Shown here piece after piece: positions 2,521-60,487 of a stretch of 64,000 nucleotides of DNA. The position numbers and the translations under genes are program-made. The notes under the pieces were generated by a model. It did not search any database. It was not told the DNA's origin and saw only the letters and a list, made by a program, of their open reading frames with translations. Within the stretch, counting starts at the first letter, position 1, and each line of letters begins with the position of its first letter. Origin of the DNA: a virus; the IMG/VR virus record IMGVR_UViG_2786546475_000019, positions 974-64,973 of that record. One strand, written 5' to 3'.

Positions 2521-2687
2521 TAGGCCAAAACACAATGATACTGGGGTAGGGGTTCAGAATCCGCCGGTCCGTGGACCAAAGAACTTCATTAACGTTTCCT
2601 CTGAAAATTATTTTCTGAATTTTTTCAGAATTAGGGGCAATCCGTCCTGCCCTCATTCGTATCTATAGGGAAGTCCACCTACTGATA

Positions 2688-3257
2688 ATGATAATGACAA
2701 GAAAACTTTATCCAGCATTACCTGATCACCCTGAGTACCGTTGCAAGTCCACGGCTCAAAACAAACATTGTACGTTTCTATCATGTGACGGACTTCGCAA
2801 ACTGAATCTGTACGACGATCCAAGGCAATCTGATAAATGTCCCAAGCACGCCGGACGACCACCAAGTAAACAAACAGCTTTGGCAAAGTACATGGACACC
2901 CATCCTCATGAGGTGGGTTATCATTTGCCGGACCAAGCACCAAAGGTGCATTCCCAATCCCGAAGTGTCGCCGAAGAACTTCACATTCTCCGCACACTTC
3001 TTCAAAACACCCTGAACCAATGCAATACGTCGCTCGACTTACTCGCTAACACTGAGCGAATGACAGTCTTAAGTGATAAGATTGCTAACTTGATAAAAAC
3101 TGACGTATTCCTCGAAGAAAAAACAAAGAACTCCTTGACGCGGGACCAAATCATGGCCGTGCTCTCGGAGATACAACAAGTGATAACTCGGCATTGTTCG
3201 CCGGAGCAGGTCGCACTGATCCGTCAAGACTTCCAAGAACTAACCATTCCTGACTAA
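2688..3257 (+). CDS. hypothetical protein (Cys/His-rich N-terminus)
   Basis: 189-aa ORF following a repeat-rich intergenic region. Confidence 0.45.
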   Translation: MIMTRKLYPALPDHPEYRCKSTAQNKHCTFLSCDGLRKLNLYDDPRQSDKCPKHAGRPPSKQTALAKYMDTHPHEVGYHLPDQAPKVHSQSRSVAEELHILRTLLQNTLNQCNTSLDLLANTERMTVLSDKIANLIKTDVFLEEKTKNSLTRDQIMAVLSEIQQVITRHCSPEQVALIRQDFQELTIPD

Positions 3258-19546: not shown

Positions 19547-19976
19547 CGAAGTCTGGACCAAAGCTATCAAGCGGCGAGTCAATTTAGTTTGGCAGCCGAA
19601 ATTGGTAAATGTTTTAGTCCCAGAAGAACAACGACACTCCAAGGACTATAGTTCTTGGTTTGAAGTTAGAGTAGTCAATTTGCGATTTCGTGAACTCACT
19701 CACGGTTGTTGGAGAGCGAGTTTTGAAATCAGCATTTTAGTTATCTCTCCTGAGAGTGATAACATTTACACCCACGACGAAAGATCAGGTAAGGCAGCTT
19801 CCACAATGGTGGGCTGTTTTACCTTTTCGTCGGCGGGACTCGTACACTTTCAAAGAGTGCGAGAAGACGACGTGCAGATTCGAAACTTAGCTCGAAGGAG
19901 CCAAGGGTCGATTATTTTTGATTACGAAGTGATAGCCAAATACCAAGGAGATTTTGAGCATGGCCAGATCACCTAA
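19524..19976 (+). CDS. head-tail joining candidate
   Basis: 150-aa ORF. Confidence 0.4.
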   Translation: MFMSTQLNEVWTKAIKRRVNLVWQPKLVNVLVPEEQRHSKDYSSWFEVRVVNLRFRELTHGCWRASFEISILVISPESDNIYTHDERSGKAASTMVGCFTFSSAGLVHFQRVREDDVQIRNLARRSQGSIIFDYEVIAKYQGDFEHGQIT

Positions 19977-20463
19977 GATCGATTTGAAAAATGCTACCAT
20001 CAAGTTTCTTGACGGTACTGCTGTGACTCCACAAGAGTTGGAGTTGAAAGTTGATGATGGAAACATTACGTTCCAAAGTCAACGTGAAATTGAATACGTC
20101 CTTAATCGAGGCAAACTTGATTCAACGCGAGAAGGGGACGAAGTCCCAATGTCCGTAAGTATCAACTTGCGATGGGACGAAATTCGAGCCTCAACCGCTG
20201 ATTCTCATATGTCACCATATGAGTTTATCACTGGAGAGAATAAAGGATCAGCTGTTGTTTCAACAGGAGCTGATTGTGAACCGCTTGCCATTGATATCCA
20301 AGTTGTCTTGGGCCTCGACGCTTGTAGCGGTTCAAATGTTGAAGACGAAACAATCGTCTTTACTCAATTCCGTTACGAGTCTATTGACGGCGATGCATCT
20401 AACGGCACGTTGTCCGTGCAAGGACGATGCAATGCTAAACACCCAACTTCAACACGAGGGTAA
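19954..20463 (+). CDS. tail protein candidate (position suits a major tail protein)
   Basis: 169 aa. Confidence 0.4.
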   Translation: MSMARSPKIDLKNATIKFLDGTAVTPQELELKVDDGNITFQSQREIEYVLNRGKLDSTREGDEVPMSVSINLRWDEIRASTADSHMSPYEFITGENKGSAVVSTGADCEPLAIDIQVVLGLDACSGSNVEDETIVFTQFRYESIDGDASNGTLSVQGRCNAKHPTSTRG

Positions 20464-21054
20464 TTGATGAAAATCAAGGGAACCAAACTTGGACCAGTGG
20501 GACGTCACCCTATCACTTTGTTTTTTACGGATAAAAAACTTGTGGTATGGGTGAAGCCCATTTCTGATGAAAGTGAACTACACGCAGTCTATCCAGCTCC
20601 TCAACCTCCAACTGTTACAAAACGAGGGCAGGAGCCAGTTCAGGATTTCAAAGATCCACGCTACTTGGAAGCTGCGAAAAAATATAATGAAATTCATACT
20701 ACTTGGATGCTTTGGCATTCTTTGGTAAATGCCACTTTGGACGAAGCCGGAGAGCAGCCAGCAGGTATTGAATTTGAAACTATCAAGTTGGAAGAACCTG
20801 AAACTCTTCTCAACATTGATAAAGAATTGCACGAAGTAATGACTAGCTTGACGGTCATGAAAGTGTTCAATGATATTATGCGAGCTAATGCACCTTCTGA
20901 AAAGACTTTTGATGAATCTCTTGAAGCTTTTCAACTAGCTCGTCAAGCGGGCGGACAGTCTTCATTCCTGAAGGACGAACCGGAGACTACGGAGCTTGGC
21001 GAGCGTGCGAGCGAGCGGGAATCGGATTCCCCGGAATTGGCGGAAAGTCAGTAA
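20464..21054 (+). CDS. tail assembly protein candidate (acidic C-terminus)
   Basis: 196 aa. Confidence 0.4.
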   Translation: MMKIKGTKLGPVGRHPITLFFTDKKLVVWVKPISDESELHAVYPAPQPPTVTKRGQEPVQDFKDPRYLEAAKKYNEIHTTWMLWHSLVNATLDEAGEQPAGIEFETIKLEEPETLLNIDKELHEVMTSLTVMKVFNDIMRANAPSEKTFDESLEAFQLARQAGGQSSFLKDEPETTELGERASERESDSPELAESQ

Positions 21055-21135
21055 ATTGGGACGATCTTACTTGCTGGGAGCAGGAAAGATTATTAGCTTA
21101 CGATTTAGTCCGAGCAAAAGACGAGCAATTGAAAG

Positions 21136-33403: not shown

Positions 33404-33612
33404 GCCAAAGCCAACTTGAAGCTTACGCCAGACAACGTAAGTTTAGGCCCAAGATGGAAAATGTTCAAATTTGTGAACAGTGCGACCACTTAATACGTGA
33501 TCGCTACTGTTCCAAATTTGGCAAGTGTCCTGACGCTCAAAAAGATTTCTTTAAAGCCCTTGAACGAAGTAAATGTCCTTTAGAGAAATTTCCGTCGCAG
33601 CTCAGCGAATAG
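33400..33612 (+). CDS. small zinc-ribbon protein
   Basis: CEQCDH...CSKFGKCPD. Confidence 0.35.
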   Translation: MSQSQLEAYARQRKFRPKMENVQICEQCDHLIRDRYCSKFGKCPDAQKDFFKALERSKCPLEKFPSQLSE

Positions 33613-33996
33613 AATTCTAACTTGCTTAGGAGTTAACTCTAACAAACGCCCGATTTCCGAATACGTATAGTATTGAAGTCGTAAACTTACAGCCCATCGC
33701 TCCTCGACAGTTAGCCTATCTAGGTCAAACTGATCGAGGAATTCTTCTGCACTTCTTGATAATTCTTCAATATCGCCTAACGCTTCGGTATCATTGTTTG
33801 TTTGCATTTTCTTTCGACGACGGTAAGCGTCAATACCTCTCGACCGTAGTAAGGTTCTTAAGTGTGAGATGAATTTCTTTTCCTCAACTAGCTCATGATA
33901 ATTCTCCCACGCTTGTAAAAATTCCAAAGATAGCGAGCAGTCAAATTTAGTTTCAAACTCTCGCAACAAGTAAACATAATCGTCGATCCTTCGCAT
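33580..33996 (-). CDS. HTH protein resembling sigma-70 region 4
   Basis: C-terminal YSEIGRLLELTPKQVRILFAELRRK. Last gene of the minus-strand nucleotide operon. Confidence 0.4.
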   Translation of the reverse strand: MRRIDDYVYLLREFETKFDCSLSLEFLQAWENYHELVEEKKFISHLRTLLRSRGIDAYRRRKKMQTNNDTEALGDIEELSRSAEEFLDQFDLDRLTVEERWAVSLRLQYYTYSEIGRLLELTPKQVRILFAELRRKFL

Positions 33997-37585: not shown

Positions 37586-38236
37586 TTAAACCATATTCAA
37601 AGTAATTGGAGGTTTGTCGCTTTTTAAAAGTTTAGCTAGCTTTTCTAACGCTCGCTTTTCAAGTTGACGAACTCTTTCTCGCGAGATATTAAGAGTTTCC
37701 CCAATAGTCTTAAGAGGAATCCCTTGGGCTCGTAGCCTCAAAACTAAAGCATCTCGACTATTTAACTCAAGAAAAGCTTTTTCTAGAGCAATAAGCTCCT
37801 CTTGCCATTCTATCAAATCCCTATCAAGACATTCTAAAGGTGTAACAGGGTTATTAAATAGCCCGTGTAAGGTTTGAAACATTGGAGCACGAGCTATAGC
37901 AGCTTTAGCTCTGTCAAGATGAGCTGGATTTGGAGATACTTTAATTAACTCCACCTTGGTTTTCATGTAAGTTATCATTCGTTGTTTCACCCACGGAGTG
38001 GCGTAAGTTGAAAACTGATAACCTTTACTAGGGTCAAATTTTTTGACCGCCTGACATAACCCACTCATTCCTTCTTGAATTAAATCGTCTAAATCAAGCT
38101 TAGAATTTTTCTTGGCAAAAGACACCGCTATCTTGATAACCAATCCTTGATTATCTAACACTAACCGATTGAGTGCTTCATCAGCTTCCTTTCTAGCAGA
38201 ATGATATTTTTGTAATAACTCGTCATTAGTATCCAC
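37586..38236 (-). CDS. RNA polymerase sigma factor (sigma-70 family, group 3/4-like)
   Basis: Region 2 (GLVIKIAVSFAKKNSKLDLDDLIQEGMSGLCQAVKKFDPSKGYQFSTYATPWVKQRM) and region 4 HTH (LKTIGETLNISRERVRQLEKRALEKL). Confidence 0.7.
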   Translation of the reverse strand: MDTNDELLQKYHSARKEADEALNRLVLDNQGLVIKIAVSFAKKNSKLDLDDLIQEGMSGLCQAVKKFDPSKGYQFSTYATPWVKQRMITYMKTKVELIKVSPNPAHLDRAKAAIARAPMFQTLHGLFNNPVTPLECLDRDLIEWQEELIALEKAFLELNSRDALVLRLRAQGIPLKTIGETLNISRERVRQLEKRALEKLAKLLKSDKPPITLNMV

Positions 38237-51284: not shown

Positions 51285-51629
51285 TCAGTCTCCTCTTATC
51301 AATTGATAAATTTCTTTGTAAGTATGTACTGGCATATTATACTTGTCCGCTATATCCTGCCAGTTCTCTTCCCACCAGCTAAAAGAATGACACTGACCCC
51401 CAACTTTCAACACTCCAAAGTCTTGGTTGACTTCTACTTTGCGGCCGTGTAAAATTCCGAGTGTTATCAGTTTGCCGTAGCCGTAGCCGTAGCCGTAGCC
51501 GTAGCCGTCGCCGTCGCCGTAGCCGTCGCCGTAGCCGTAGCCGTAGCCGTAGCCGTCGCCGTAGCCGTAGCCGGTCCCGTAGCCGGTCCCGTAGCCGGTC
51601 CCGTAGCCGTCGCCGTGGTTACTTAACAT
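51285..51629 (-). CDS. protein with an N-terminal (G-Y-G / D-G-Y)n low-complexity repeat
   Basis: About 50 residues of GYGTGYGTGYGYGDGYGYGYGYGDGYGDGDGYGYGYGYGYG, encoded by a GCCGTAGCC tandem DNA repeat at 51477-51620. Followed by a 60-aa globular tail. Confidence 0.45.
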   Translation of the reverse strand: MLSNHGDGYGTGYGTGYGTGYGYGDGYGYGYGYGDGYGDGDGYGYGYGYGYGKLITLGILHGRKVEVNQDFGVLKVGGQCHSFSWWEENWQDIADKYNMPVHTYKEIYQLIRGD

Positions 51630-54014: not shown

Positions 54015-54090
54015 GATAATCCTTTCAAGTGAGAAACAGTAAACAACGGTCCGGGCTACCCGTGGGCAGCACGGTACGTTGGCTATTGAT
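54012..54090 (-). promoter_or_regulatory. Repeated upstream cassette D
   Basis: catgataatcctttcaagtgagaaacagtaaacaacggtcc-gggctacccgtgggcagcacgg-tacgttggctat. Confidence 0.6.
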
Positions 54091-54285
54091 AGACCTAGGC
54101 CCGAAGGCCCAGGATTAAATCCAGATTGTCAAAGATCAAAATTATCATTTGTGTCCCGCCACTGGCGGAAATGATATGATAGCTTACAGACCTACGGTCA
54201 ATCTATTCTATACTTAATATCGGCAATTGGGAAGTAAGAAAATAGATTATTTTTGAAAATAATCAAAACTTTATCATATCATTTT

Positions 54286-55979: not shown

Positions 55980-58592
55980 TTAAGTTGCCCTTTCTCCCTT
56001 AATCGTTTCCCTTTTAACACCGTCTGGAGTTTCAACAAAACGAAACCCGTTGTCTTTCGGAGCTTCATACGAGAAGCGAACATTGTAGATACATGTCTTT
56101 TGCATCTCGTCAATAGCTATCAAATACATTTCCGCTAGGTTCTGTTCGAACTTCTTACGATTTGCTCGCCCCCCGTCGTCCATGTAGTTCTTATACAGAA
56201 GTTGAAGCTCCACTTTTGATCCAGGCTGTTCTTGGAGCACGGACCGTGCAAAGAGTTCAACGTCGGTTCGGTTCAAGTCCGCAGCTTGCTCTTTATCAAC
56301 CGTATCCACAACAGGAACATTCAAACGCCCCTGAGTTGGCGGTATTTGATACGCTAACAAGGCATACAGAAACGCGGGAGCTTGAGCTTCCAGTTGTTCC
56401 AAAAGAAGTTTCTTTGGAATAACTTTATCTGGCTTCTTGGGTACATTGATAACCGTGATTCGGGTGTCTCCGGGAAGTATCGGACAGAACTCACGATTGT
56501 TCGCGGTGTGAATCCAATGCGACGTATTAGGTATCATGTAAGCGGGCTTGCCTTTTGTGTTGACTGAGATTACTTTGGACGTAACATAGTCTTTAACTTT
56601 TTGATAAACAGTGGAGTCCGAGTTCAAGTTAATCTCCTCAAGAACGCAAAGCACCGCCCCAGCAAGTTCACTGTTGAACGAGCTGACTAACGCGTTCTCC
56701 GCTCGAACGACACCGGGACTAAACAACAATGATAATGCTTCATGCAAAATCGACTTCCCGGTGTCTTGCTCCGTGGAATACAAAAACAGAAACGGCAAAG
56801 GTTCAAACGGTTGTTGTATCAATGACGCGACCCACGCAAACAGATAGTCGTGTCCTTTGCAAATACCGTTCTCCGTGAACCAATTATCCTTACGAACGTA
56901 TTGATCTAGAGAGTGTCCGATATGGTCCAGAATCTTCATCCAAAGATCAAAGTTTCCTTCTTCTGGAGTGTGTCGCAGTTGAGCAGCTCCCCGATTCCAT
57001 AAACGATTACCCGGATATTCAGACTCAAAGGGTCGTGAAACAATGTTCCAGGGCTTCATGATAGCTTCACCCTGCATCTGCTGAATCTCTTTAGTGTTCA
57101 TTCCTTGGCTTTTGAGACCGAGCGTCAGGTTGGCGATCGGTTCTTCGATCCAACCGTTATCATGCGTCTCAATAGCCCAACCGGCGTCCACGCTACCCAT
57201 AATCATGTGACGAATCTGCGTATTCGTGTCCACGTCATACGGGCTACCAGTACGAGACTCTTTTATCACTTTCAACCAACGTGTTCCTTTTGCGATCCAA
57301 CCTTCAATGCCGCCTGGGTCGCCTTTGATTTTCGGAATCTCAATTTTAAGCTTGTTTTCCTTTAGCTGAGTGACAGTTGCTTGACGAGCTATCAATACTT
57401 CGTCAATGGCTTGCATTTCATGTTGCTGGAAAAGCTTAGTCAATTTATGAGCAGGAAGCACCATTCCTTTTTTATCATCTTCTAACGCTCCTGAATCTTT
57501 CACCAAGGTCCAAAGCGGTGGAACATAATTCAAATACGTGCGAGTCCATCCGTTCTTCGTGGTCCACGATTCATGTTCCTTGGCTTCGTTGCCATATCGG
57601 TACACGGCCCATGCTCCGTGTGGAAGCGGATACGCGAAGCAGTTCTGTTTGTGGAGATCAGTTCCGTCACTGATAGTCTGGAAATCGCCTTTAAACCCGA
57701 GTTCTTTGGAAGCTTGCTCCAATAGTTTAGTGTGCGTGATAAACATCTTTCCTTCCGCGTTCCAGTAACCAAACGCGGAGTTGTTATTCATCCACTCAAG
57801 CAAACGCTCATGTTCTTCTTCAAGCGTCACGGACTGTTTGTGCTTGATAATTTCTTCCATACGGTCATCAGCATAAGAGTGTTTCTTCTTACCGCTCACG
57901 ACGCCAATATGATCTCGCCATCCCAGCGGCTCTTTGATATGGGCCTCAGCTTCCTTAATAATTTGAAAGCCGTTCTCTCCCGTTTTCCGTGACCATACCC
58001 ACATATTACAACCGAAAACATCAACTGCAAGGTCAAAGTCGAAACCAGTCTCAAGACATAGTTGACTCAGAACGCCGCGAGCAAGAGCAGCGTGTTCTGC
58101 CCGACTTGTCGTAGTGATAAGGTCTTCAAAGAAAACATATAAGTGGTAGCCAGCTCCACTTTTAGATCGTTGTACTCGCACCCAAGGTACGTTACACGCT
58201 CGTTGTTGAATATCAAGTAGATCAGTCTGCGTTAGCTTGTGCTTGTGCCGAGCTGAGTGGCCCACGATACCGTCAAAGTCGAAAGCAACATATCGCGAGA
58301 TGCATTGCCCAAAGTCCCACCCCGATAAACCAACCATTGAGGCGTGATCTTCCAGGCTGAACTTGATATTTCCTTCATCGTATTTGCCATCAATTCGAAA
58401 ATTCTTCCAGACTTGAACACCGTCAGTCCACTCCCGGTAGGTCCGACCTTTGTATTCCTTATCAACAGGCTCGCCGCCATCAGCGGCTACGTTTACTTGA
58501 ACTTCCATTGTAGGCGAGTATAACGCCGCCATGTGGGGTTCTGCGTTATCACGCAAGAATCGTTCTAAAGCTTCACTTTTACGCATTAACAA
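55980..58592 (-). CDS. bifunctional primase-polymerase (Prim-Pol) / SF3 (D5-like) helicase
   Basis: N-terminal Prim-Pol signature VAFDFDGIVGHS...SGAGYHLYVFFE. C-terminal P-loop YSTEQDTGKS and Walker B LCVLEEI. Confidence 0.6.
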   Translation of the reverse strand: MLMRKSEALERFLRDNAEPHMAALYSPTMEVQVNVAADGGEPVDKEYKGRTYREWTDGVQVWKNFRIDGKYDEGNIKFSLEDHASMVGLSGWDFGQCISRYVAFDFDGIVGHSARHKHKLTQTDLLDIQQRACNVPWVRVQRSKSGAGYHLYVFFEDLITTTSRAEHAALARGVLSQLCLETGFDFDLAVDVFGCNMWVWSRKTGENGFQIIKEAEAHIKEPLGWRDHIGVVSGKKKHSYADDRMEEIIKHKQSVTLEEEHERLLEWMNNNSAFGYWNAEGKMFITHTKLLEQASKELGFKGDFQTISDGTDLHKQNCFAYPLPHGAWAVYRYGNEAKEHESWTTKNGWTRTYLNYVPPLWTLVKDSGALEDDKKGMVLPAHKLTKLFQQHEMQAIDEVLIARQATVTQLKENKLKIEIPKIKGDPGGIEGWIAKGTRWLKVIKESRTGSPYDVDTNTQIRHMIMGSVDAGWAIETHDNGWIEEPIANLTLGLKSQGMNTKEIQQMQGEAIMKPWNIVSRPFESEYPGNRLWNRGAAQLRHTPEEGNFDLWMKILDHIGHSLDQYVRKDNWFTENGICKGHDYLFAWVASLIQQPFEPLPFLFLYSTEQDTGKSILHEALSLLFSPGVVRAENALVSSFNSELAGAVLCVLEEINLNSDSTVYQKVKDYVTSKVISVNTKGKPAYMIPNTSHWIHTANNREFCPILPGDTRITVINVPKKPDKVIPKKLLLEQLEAQAPAFLYALLAYQIPPTQGRLNVPVVDTVDKEQAADLNRTDVELFARSVLQEQPGSKVELQLLYKNYMDDGGRANRKKFEQNLAEMYLIAIDEMQKTCIYNVRFSYEAPKDNGFRFVETPDGVKRETIKGERAT

Positions 58593-59017
58593 ACCTCATT
58601 AACAAATTGATATCATTTTCGATAACAGATTCGAGAAAGCCCGAAACAACCAGACTTCACCCTATAGCTACGAGTGGCGGGATATCGGATTGCCCCACAA
58701 AATGAAAATAAATCGAGTTAATGGAAATTGATACGAAACTTTAATGACGTTTCCAGTGCAGCGTTATCATTATTCTCTCACGTACGCGAAGCCATTAACG
58801 TTTTTGATACTCAAACCTTTAATTTAAGCTTCTACTTCTTATGGGTACGAGGTGAAAGTAAAATATAGTAGTAGTGTAAATATTATAAGGATTTCAGCCG
58901 CTCAGGCGAGCTTCTGATAAGAAAACGTTAATGAGCCAAATTTTACGTTAAATTGGTATGTTTCGACGGGAATTGATACCGTCTCACTGCTCTCCTCCCG
59001 AACCTTGCATCTTGGCT

Positions 59018-59082
59018 CACGCTACACGTATCACGCTACACGTATCACGCTACACGTACGCGTAGCACGTGGGTACGTGCCA
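59018..59082. repeat. Three 14-bp direct iterons (cacgctacacgta[t/c]) followed by tacgcgta and cacgtg palindromes
   Basis: Copies at 59018-59031, 59032-59045 and 59046-59059, then cgcgtagcacgtgggtacgtgcc. Confidence 0.8.
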
Positions 59083-59374
59083 GGGCCAAAGACCTTGAGT
59101 TCTCTTTTAAGTCTCGGAACTGACGTGTAAATTAGTAAGCGGTTATCATTTTGCGTGAGCAAATGATAATTCTCGCGTGCTCCCGCGTGTCCCGCACGTG
59201 CGACTATTTAAATACGCGACGTGCGTAAATGATATGATACATGGTTTTCAAAATACTTGAAAATATTTTCAAAATACGGGGCAATCCTGCCCGGTTTTAT
59301 TCGTAGCTATAGGGGGAAAGTAGACTGTTTTACTTTCCAAAACGACTATCATATCATTTGTGGAGAAGTCCAAC

Positions 59375-60403
59375 ATGGCAGAAGAAACTCAAGCTACCGA
59401 AACTATCATTTCAGAAGGATTGACTCAAGAGCAGTTCGAATCCGTGGGTAGCGACATTCAGGCGATTTCTATCAATGAGATCACCGTCCCTGAAGTTAAG
59501 CTTCGTGGCGTGAACACCGAAGGGGAAGAATACTTGGAACTCAAGGATTCTATCAAATCGCAAGGACTGTTGCAGAACATTACTGTACGTCCCGTCGAAA
59601 TCGCTGGCAAGCAAGGCTACGAACTTATCACTGGGCTCCAGCGATATACTGCTTGCAAGGAACTCGGACATGAGACTATCGACGCTCGTGTGAAAGAAAT
59701 GTCCGAGCAAGAAGCTTGGTTGTGGATGATCCACGAAAACACTCAACGTGTTACGCAAAAAGCGTCAGATATCACCAAGCTCTTGAAGCGTCTGATCGCC
59801 AAAGATCCAACGATGTCTATTCCACGACTCGCGAAGCTTTTGTCGAAGTCCGTGCCCCAAGTACAGAACTATCTGGCACTTGATAAACTGACCGACGAGG
59901 CAAAGGAATTGGTCGATGATGAAACCATCGGTTTGACCAACGCAGTTGCTCTCGCCAAGCTCCCACCTGAGGAGCAGGAAGACTTGCTTGCTGACGCGTC
60001 AACAATGACCGTTGCTGAATTTGTTCCACTTGTAAACGAACGAAAAGAAAAGGTTGATCAAGCCAATCGTGAAGCTCGTGAACAGGAAAAGAACACGTTT
60101 TCTCCGAAACCAAAAGCTCGCAAGAAAGACGATCTCGTCACCGAGCTTGGAATTATCATGGGCACGGAGACTGGCACTTCGCTTCTTATGGAGTGCTTGA
60201 ACGGTCAGGATGTTGATACTTCCAACCAGAATGTCAAGGCAGTTATCACTCAGACAATGGAGTGGGTCCTGAACCTTGATCCAGCGTCCGTCGACGCTCA
60301 ACGAGCGAAATGGGAAGACGCCAAAAAGAAGCGGGAAGAACGAGAAAAAGCGAAAGCTGCCGCTCGTGCCGAACGTGAAAAGGCGAAAGCCCTGGAAATC
60401 TAA
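59375..60403 (+). CDS. ParB-like nuclease-domain protein
   Basis: SQGLLQNITVRP...YELITGLQRYTACKELG is a ParB N-terminal signature. Lys/Glu-rich C-terminus. ATG at 59375 preferred over the GTG at 59360 because a GGAG ribosome-binding site lies at 59362-59365. Confidence 0.6.
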   Translation: MAEETQATETIISEGLTQEQFESVGSDIQAISINEITVPEVKLRGVNTEGEEYLELKDSIKSQGLLQNITVRPVEIAGKQGYELITGLQRYTACKELGHETIDARVKEMSEQEAWLWMIHENTQRVTQKASDITKLLKRLIAKDPTMSIPRLAKLLSKSVPQVQNYLALDKLTDEAKELVDDETIGLTNAVALAKLPPEEQEDLLADASTMTVAEFVPLVNERKEKVDQANREAREQEKNTFSPKPKARKKDDLVTELGIIMGTETGTSLLMECLNGQDVDTSNQNVKAVITQTMEWVLNLDPASVDAQRAKWEDAKKKREEREKAKAAARAEREKAKALEI

Positions 60404-60487
60404 ATTGATAGTTTCAATTTAGTTTCAATTTAGATTCCATCTGATACTTCAATTTTAAACTTCAACTTCAATTTAAAAGGACATTTT

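Follow-up and report, generated by a model that had tools for sequence, protein, structure and literature searches.

What is the function of the largest non-coding stretch in the genome of an uncultured, tailed marine phage? The stretch lies in IMG/VR record IMGVR_UViG_2786546475_000019, of which 64,000 nucleotides (positions 974 to 64,973; hereinafter, the window) were analyzed, representing most of a 72,097-bp circle. It extends over 788 bp (58587-59374), from the ATG of a primase-helicase gene at 58586 on the minus strand to the ATG of a ParB-like gene at 59375 on the plus strand, and is denoted here the gap. A first-pass annotation had described this region as an origin-like divergent intergenic region with iterons and nested palindromes, and had proposed roles as a replication origin and/or partition site plus early promoters. 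This interpretation is partly supported by the present analysis: promoters are indicated, an origin is possible but unproven, and partition is unsupported. Judging from sequence comparison, the gap is probably the central two-way transcription control region of the ~72-kb phage.

The genes that flank the gap are the following:
55980-58586, minus strand: primase-helicase gene, 868 amino acids (aa), with matches to DUF5906 and to the PHROG family 'DNA primase', an AEP-like N-terminus and a D5/SF3-type helicase
59375-60403, plus strand: ParB-like gene, 342 aa, the first in the rightward replication block, with ParB_N and HTH_ParB domains and a score that passes the TIGR00180 cut-off

The identities and the divergent orientation of these genes had been described correctly, and so had the non-coding status of the gap, which contains no called genes in seven independent assemblies. 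The PDB profile match of the primase-helicase (6k9c/6k9e) is named 'Primase', and the alignment retains D-F-D and later histidines, which we take to be the AEP primase motifs; the direct Pfam AEP match falls below the threshold. The region 58401-59600 (1,200 bp compared) is 100% identical in all seven fetched loci that cover it, which come from several samples and assemblies, in contrast to the region at the window start, which is 1-7% divergent between assemblies. The gap does not appear to be an RNA gene: no tRNA, no Rfam match at E <= 1 and no strong folding signal were detected within it (z-scores of -2.9 or higher, with little difference between the strands). All the sequence elements that had been listed for the gap are present, far beyond chance, with some of the coordinates off by one.

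The first line of evidence for transcription control comes from the outer parts of the gap which, as indicated by repeat search and alignment, are two inverted copies of a single module, one for each flanking gene. The module has the structure T[AT]TTTTCA-N6-GGGGCAATCC-N13-TCGTA[GT]CTATAGGG, with fixed spacing and unconserved spacers. There are exactly three copies of GGGGCAATCC in 72 kb, each in the full three-block context, and each of the three modules points at a first-in-block start codon that is located 17-73 nt away; for the two modules in the gap, the distance to the start codons of the flanking genes is 60-73 nt. The modules and the associated hairpins are:
58660-58710, minus strand: leftward module, consisting of TATTTTCA (58703-58710), N6, GGGGCAATCC (58687-58696), N13 and TCGTAGCTATAGGG (58660-58673)
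58630-58645, minus strand: short hairpin TTCGGG-CTTT-CTCGAA in the presumed leftward leader
59245-59314, plus strand: rightward module, consisting of two copies of TTTTCAAAATAC, N6, GGGGCAATCC (59278-59287), N13 and TCGTAGCTATAGGG (59301-59314)
59315-59338, plus strand: perfect hairpin GGAAAGTA-N8-TACTTTCC, directly after the rightward module, at the presumed 5' end of the transcript
2620-2670, plus strand: third module, 17 nt upstream of the open reading frame (ORF) 2688-3257, the first of a long plus-strand structural block

The second TTTTCAAAATAC copy of the rightward module contains the TATTTTCA block (59264-59271). The TTTTCAAAATAC direct repeat (59245 and 59266) around the 14-bp palindrome TGAAAATATTTTCA (59258-59271) and the hairpin that precedes the ParB-like gene had both been recognized previously and listed as origin features, but they are parts of the rightward module or its leader. 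The third module is preceded by TCATTAACGTTTC (2586) and followed by TGATAATGATAATGA (2683-2697), which overlaps the start codon of ORF 2688-3257. In terms of geometry, an A/T block is followed by GCAATC, 17 bp and TAGCTA, a spacing that resembles that of a bacterial promoter with a likely start near GGG. Given that the third copy heads a structural gene block, the module is best described as promoter-like and not origin-specific.

A second line of evidence is the presence in the gap of short boxes that are used elsewhere in the genome. The sequence ATGATATGATA is represented by five perfect copies in the genome, all of them non-coding, and looser versions are found at 58606-58621, 59143-59171 and 2683-2697. 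These and other boxes include:
59229-59239, plus strand: ATGATATGATA, upstream box of the rightward module
59347-59357, minus strand: ATGATATGATA, downstream box within the ParB-like gene leader, forming a convergent pair with the 59229 box
58606-58621, minus strand: TGATA-type leader box AAAATGATATCAATTT, between the leftward module and the primase start codon
59143-59171, no strand assigned: inverted AAATGATAA pair, TTATCATTTTG-N7-AAATGATAATT
58723-58934, no strand assigned: left-central segment, with GGRAATTGATAC at 58723 (second copy at 58968), three copies of TCATTAAMGTTTC and the most AT-rich part of the gap
54171-54282, minus strand: second convergent ATGATATGATA pair (54171/54272), between two minus-strand genes

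Thus, the rightward module lies within the convergent pair 59229/59347, and a degenerate, AT-rich version of it lies within the pair 54171/54272. The respective control region (54015-54285) includes a promoter-like stretch that, at 80% AT, ranks second in the genome in AT content. The fifth ATGATATGATA copy is located at ~71.9 kb. The TGATA-type boxes are tandem pentamers that form pairs with variable spacing. The TCATTAAMGTTTC boxes are found at 58735 (minus), 58792 (plus) and 58922 (minus) as well as at 2586, and the 10-bp palindrome CGCACGTGCG is present in the genome only at 59193-59202 and at window position 321. The GATAATGATAAT sequence at 2684 suggested a Fur box, a candidate that was rejected (29 matches at <=6 mismatches vs 24 expected, none of them in the gap). 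The gap thus looks like a mosaic of box types that are common to other control regions and, because these boxes recur, transcription regulators appear to fit better than a one-off origin.

The third line of evidence is the conservation of the same arrangement in a large family of relatives. Among the candidates scored, 542 homologues of the primase-helicase were detected at E <= 0.001, the closest one being 43% identical, and at least 310 IMG/VR contigs encode a homologue. A divergent ParB-like neighbour is present at nearly every related locus for which upstream sequence is available (~60 distinct relatives). Most of the gaps are short (57 of the 64 distinct ones are <=900 bp, typically ~400 bp), and inverted arms of 25-72 nt with 79-100% identity and symmetric placement were identified in 27 of the 57. 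Of the 112 half-gaps, 14 contain the dyad ACAA-N16-TATA, vs 1.2 in shuffles, and in one relative (L030), the two arms are the only two sigma-70-like sites. Boxes of the GAT[AT]TGAT type occur at 4.27 per kb in the relatives' gaps vs 0.10 in the flanks, a ~43-fold difference, and pair convergently in both leaders, 0-47 bp apart; convergent GATTTGAT pairs occupy both leaders. Tandem iterons are rare and absent from most of the relatives' gaps. Because the layout recurs in relatives while tandem repeats are rare, the conserved function at the ParB/primase position would be divergent expression control, the repeat-bearing centre being peculiar to this phage. There are no close relatives for phylogenetic footprinting, the next primase homologue being 43% identical.

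Several further features of the relatives were observed. In several of them, the two arms of a gap seem to have been homogenised, given that 40-70 nt, including the spacers, show 85-100% identity between them. In L008, L010, L012, L030, L073, L081, L085 and others, a long palindrome, GTAAGTCAC-N-GTGACTTAC, is located just upstream of each inverted arm. Some relatives (L097-L100, L107 and L109) reside on contigs of 137 kb to 1.07 Mb in metagenome-assembled genomes (MAGs) of Planctomycetota (Thermoguttaceae and Planctomycetaceae), a location that points to integrated prophages and to a host phylum of some family members; the ParB/primase pair is retained on these contigs. One primase-helicase of 1259 aa (P0056/L106) contains intein and LAGLIDADG domains (PF14890 and PF14528) and is thus an intein-interrupted copy; the contig is binned to a Methanomassiliicoccales MAG.

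The motifs, with their numbers of copies, orientation and reuse, are direct observations, as is the architecture shared by the relatives; promoter activity, operator function and any role in replication are inferred. Outward-facing elements lie upstream of both genes, as expected of a divergent control region from position and geometry, and the same motifs are reused at other transcription units (the third module at 2620-2670 and the box pair 54171/54272). The two inverted modules would start transcription outward, with the leftward one driving the primase-helicase block and the rightward one driving the block that comprises the ParB-like gene, an SNF2-type helicase, a second ParB_N protein and DNA polymerase A. 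The TGATA-type boxes that bracket or follow the modules most likely serve as operators to which a sequence-specific DNA-binding protein would bind. The 450-bp middle contains further candidate binding arrays (six CACG heptads, ACGTGC palindromes, TCATTAAMGTTTC and GGRAATTGATAC boxes) that may add regulation or mark a replication start beside the initiator gene, two roles that are compatible. Of the previously proposed early promoters, the promoter part is well supported by the two inverted modules, the third copy and the conserved divergent layout in relatives; the module also heads the structural gene block.

Several observations weigh against control of transcription as the function of the gap. 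The fit of the module to the sigma-70 consensus is poor, and a consensus scan did not pick it up; furthermore, the phage encodes its own sigma-70 family factor. In the relatives, the excess of gaps with sigma-70-like sites facing both ways is weak (31 of 56 vs 20 in shuffles), and therefore, the identity of the promoters rests on position, orientation and reuse rather than on a known consensus. Furthermore, the central array is not explained by a promoter role and is absent from the relatives and from other control regions. The two phage genes that are relevant in this context are:
37586-38236, minus strand: sigma-70 family factor, 216 aa, with regions 2 and 4 (TIGR02937, E 1.7e-32)
33580-33996, minus strand: possible second sigma factor, truncated, extracytoplasmic function (ECF)-like, 138 aa, with a score below the cut-off

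Either of these factors could read the promoter-like module. An ECF-sigma-like AAC-N16-CGTA motif in the modules was considered and dropped, given that the fit was by eye in a few relatives and was not recovered by dyad analysis. Also rejected was the possibility that the inverted arms are the ends of a mobile element or of an invertible segment: only three blocks are conserved between the arms, the spacers differ, the third copy is solitary, and in the relatives, unrelated sequences are arranged in the same way.

The middle of the gap contains the elements that are not part of the modules:
59015-59056, plus strand: six contiguous 7-bp units NNWCACG with an invariant CACG core, equivalent to three perfect 14-bp copies of TCACGCTACACGTA at 59017-59058
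59049-59081, no strand assigned: overlapping ACGT-core palindromes GCTACACGTACGCGTAGC, CACGTG and GCACGT-N4-ACGTGC
59174-59225, no strand assigned: two copies of CGCGTG, the palindrome CGCACGTGCG (59193-59202) and GACGTGCG

The three iterons had been placed at 59018-59059, one base to the right of their actual position, and the palindromes and boxes that had been noted next to them were also recovered, namely, TACGCGTA at 59057 (the sole copy in the genome), CACGTG at 59066 and 59195, CGCGTG at 59174 and 59184, and three copies of ACGTGCG within 59193-59225. The array occurs only once in the genome, and no further copies of TCACGCTACACGTA were detected in the window at <=2 mismatches; tandem arrays of similar quality are also present elsewhere in the window. 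Both ACGTG (11 observed vs 1.7 expected) and AAATGATA (5 observed vs 0.4 expected) are enriched in the gap. The repeat zone, with 58-60% GC, is the most GC-rich part of the gap. The central part is probably a protein-binding array, with sites that look suited to dimeric or cooperatively binding proteins.

In the origin proposal, the gap, and chiefly its middle (~58780-59230), would be the origin at which the SF3-type primase-helicase binds the repeats or the TGATA boxes, melts the DNA and loads itself; divergent transcription would help melting and loading. This proposal, which we regard as possible but less likely, is compatible with the promoter role. As in iteron origins, an initiator-type gene abuts the gap, which heads both replication blocks and is the largest non-coding region of the genome, and the opposed short repeats beside the helicase gene resemble the origins of staphylococcal pathogenicity islands (SaPIs) (PMC9371898). 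The cumulative GC skew, the check suggested in the first-pass annotation, has its minimum at 58.6-62 kb on the complete 72-kb circle, but this minimum falls at the very point where gene orientation changes and, accordingly, is not independent evidence of an origin. A marked unwinding element is lacking: the most AT-rich part of the gap, 58787-58886 (68-72% AT), is ~130 bp away from the repeats, its best 50-80-bp stretch, at 72% AT, ranks 11th in the genome, and the iteron zone is GC-rich. The repeats are contiguous 14-mers as opposed to 17-22-bp units in helical phase, and most of the relatives' gaps contain no tandem repeats at all, the gap being merely ~100-150 bp in the Planctomycetota MAG relatives. 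The convergent TGATATGATA boxes 59229/59347 do not enclose an AT-rich core, as they would in an origin of the SaPI/P4 type, but rather a promoter-like module, and a pair of the same type brackets a promoter-like stretch 5 kb away, at 54.2 kb. The single DnaA box-like site in the gap (TTCTCCACA, one mismatch) overlaps the ribosome-binding site region of the ParB-like gene and is not meaningful.

Conversely, three relatives (L051, L059 and L063) possess clusters of two or three perfect DnaA boxes (TGTGGATAA; TGTGGATAAC) in one orientation on the primase-proximal side of the gap, within ~100 bp of the primase start, where they replace the GATTTGATT boxes of other members; there are 8 copies of TGTGGATAA in the gaps vs 12 in ~470 kb of flanks. 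On the ParB side, the three relatives have GGCATCACATC/GATGTGATGCC palindromes instead. Along these lines, the ParB/primase gap could be the origin of the whole family, with the SF3 primase-helicase, with or without the ParB-like protein, loading at leader boxes that would have been exchanged in the course of evolution (GATTTGATT in the majority of the family, perfect DnaA boxes in a small number of members and TGATATGATA here). The C-terminal ~80 residues of the window primase-helicase (encoded at 55980-56220) lack the motif WSKIRVGRELPP..PKGR..YIGNI.W that is present in all ~60 relatives examined. This C-terminus, possibly replaced, together with an array unique to the phage, might reflect a swapped initiator/origin pair; if so, it would represent a natural exchange of initiator/origin specificity in this phage. 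We nevertheless consider a family-wide origin doubtful. The C-terminal motif is constant across the box types of the relatives, an observation that weighs against an origin in the gap; for the same reason, co-variation of the box type with the helicase C-terminus was rejected. In the relatives, the region of this motif shows a weak, sub-threshold match to Pox_D5 (E 0.18).

A denser candidate for an origin lies elsewhere, at ~71-72 kb, where three near-perfect 29-bp repeats, CCGCCCCAAGTTAGAACAGGTGATTTGTC, with degenerate copies (19800-21100 of locus L090, ~71.2-72.1 kb), adjoin an 80-mer that, at 81% AT, is the most AT-rich in the genome. The non-coding DNA with the highest density of repeats extends from ~70.9 kb through window position 855 and then over 2218-2687, flanking an unannotated 453-aa ORF (856-2217). 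It includes GGACCATG arrays, 7-bp GGACC(A/G)TG arrays that flank the ORF on either side, an inverted repeat of 40 nt around a loop of 10 nt, 17-bp palindromes, GTGTGCGG..CGCACA palindromes and an array of three 20-bp units at 2273-2334. As a candidate for a classical origin or centromere, this region looks stronger than the gap. The 453-aa protein was considered as a ParB relative given a GNRR-like motif, and this was rejected: it has no Pfam, PHROG or NCBIfam match and no BLASTP similarity to the ParB-like protein. A single-sequence scan of IMG/VR revealed no relatives of this protein.

Partition, the other function that had been proposed, seems quite improbable. The repeats would serve as a centromere-like or loading site for the ParB-like protein, in plasmid-like partition of a prophage or in KorB-like repression of both promoters. 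The ParB-like gene is indeed the first to the right of the gap, combines ParB_N with a helix-turn-helix (HTH) domain, passes the TIGR00180 cut-off, and remains paired with the primase across the family. With six contiguous NNWCACG units at 59015-59056, the array exceeds the four contiguous 7-bp repeats expected of the omega type and resembles the arrays of pSM19035 in geometry, two of the units reading TATCACG (PMC9499535); in addition, GTATCACG is one base off the chromosomal parS half-site GTTTCACG. However, an HTH-type ParB binds palindromes rather than direct heptads, and the heptad system employs a ribbon-helix-helix protein. No protein of the latter type was identified; the small ORFs have no recorded family match, and no search aimed at such a protein was made. 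The usual ParB box is GERRxRA, and the corresponding sequence here, GLQRYTA, contains a single arginine. There is no match to parS (TGTTNCACGTGAAACA) or to a Noc site in the gap at <=4 mismatches. The Pfam and PHROG scans, which took in 30 window ORFs and left out some at 38-47 kb, detected no ParA-type ATPase, and none is recorded for the called genes with precomputed Pfam matches. The 222-aa gene that follows the ParB-like gene has neither a Walker A motif nor a family match. The ParB-like protein could be a regulator instead.

Finally, non-functional filler, that is, slippage repeats or an insertion remnant between modules, is hardly credible as an explanation of the central part: the centre has no counterpart in relatives, with their typical gaps of ~400 bp, and the 14-bp near-repeats CACGTACGCG[AT]AGC (58779 and 59053) could mark a duplication, but there are several distinct enriched motifs and palindromes instead of a single slippage array, some of these motifs are common to distant control regions, and 58401-59600 is identical in seven loci, against 1-7% differences between assemblies at the window start.

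In a scaffold from another sample, the right end of the window is followed by DNA polymerase A, a ligase-like gene and the first window gene; because the window and this scaffold join into a 72,097-bp circle, the genome is circular or circularly permuted. A protein identical to the primase-helicase is encoded on ~72-kb marine metagenome contigs (Tara Oceans and others), and one NCBI copy is filed under an Acidobacteria MAG. The structural and packaging genes include a large terminase of the lambda GpA type, a portal, a major head protein and a tape measure; also encoded are a thymidylate synthase, a Dam-type methylase, the sigma-70 family factor and a T7-like set of replication enzymes. A nucleotide search of 50,697 deposited phages yielded no DNA match, and in a protein search of the same set, similarity of the primase was confined to the helicase core (~29% identity), so that there is no annotated relative to lean on. 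Two other repeats were observed. The hexamer GCCGTA, present in 24 copies (51474-51616), encodes a (Tyr-Gly/Asp-Gly)n tract in a 114-aa protein (51285-51629, minus strand); this protein consists of 96 aa in another assembly of the same phage, and hence, the repeat number varies between populations. The spacer between the ParB-like gene and the next ORF (60404-60487) is 79% AT and contains 2.6 copies of TAGTTTCAATT and further TTCAA(T/C)TT repeats.

The present analysis yields a regulatory map for a large phage family without a cultured member, which is represented by at least 310 IMG/VR contigs and, in some cases, by Mb-size Planctomycetota MAG contigs. This map, which combines the promoter-like motif with its three copies, operator-type boxes that can be reused and the conserved core of divergent ParB and primase genes, renders the questions of promoter, regulator and origin directly testable. 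The useful outputs are the comparative architecture of an uncultured family and two candidate cis regions. A word of caution is also due: repeats and palindromes between replication genes are insufficient for calling an origin, because most of these features belong to the promoter modules and a better-looking candidate is found elsewhere.

Among known systems, the PL-PR regions of the lambda/P22 type resemble the gap in having two outward promoters for the early or replication blocks, with repeated short operator boxes around them, in an arrangement that is conserved in relatives while the box sequences change. They differ from it in that there is no repressor gene between or beside the promoters here, no Cro/CI-like pair having been identified, and in that the module shows no sigma-70 match and also heads a structural block. 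The origin of the lactococcal phage c2 and the primary origin of T7 are transcription-activated and are located in promoter-containing non-coding regions. The similarity to the gap consists in a promoter-bearing non-coding region beside replication genes and, in the case of T7, in the set of DNA polymerase A and primase-helicase; T7, however, encodes its own single-subunit RNA polymerase, and none was found in the regions of this phage that were examined. KorB of RK2 is a ParB-type global repressor with sites that are 13-bp palindromes. As with KorB, there is an HTH ParB-family protein without a nearby ParA and the same box at several promoters, but the boxes here are tandem pentamers paired at variable spacing.

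The satellite phage P4 has a second iteron cluster (crr) several kb away, which is paralleled by the TGATA boxes at 54.2 kb. As in SaPIs and P4, an SF3/D5-type primase-helicase gene is directly adjacent to short repeats in both orientations; the helicase of this phage differs in that its C-terminus lacks the family motif. In SaPI origins, iterons of 5-6 nt are located on both sides of an AT-rich centre (PMC9371898). These origins follow rep closely on its downstream side, and their centre is clearly AT-rich, whereas the gap is upstream of the primase-helicase gene, encloses promoter-like modules and has no strong AT core. In pSM19035, 7-10 contiguous 7-bp repeats (WATCACW) function as both centromere and operator (PMC9499535). 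The omega protein of this plasmid is a ribbon-helix-helix ParB, whereas the neighbouring ParB-like protein here is of the HTH type, and only two of the six units match WATCACW at 6 of 7 positions. The two arrays nevertheless share at least four contiguous 7-bp units, a constant core and a location in a promoter region, and the omega arrays of pSM19035 are the closest formal parallel for the contiguous heptads of the gap.

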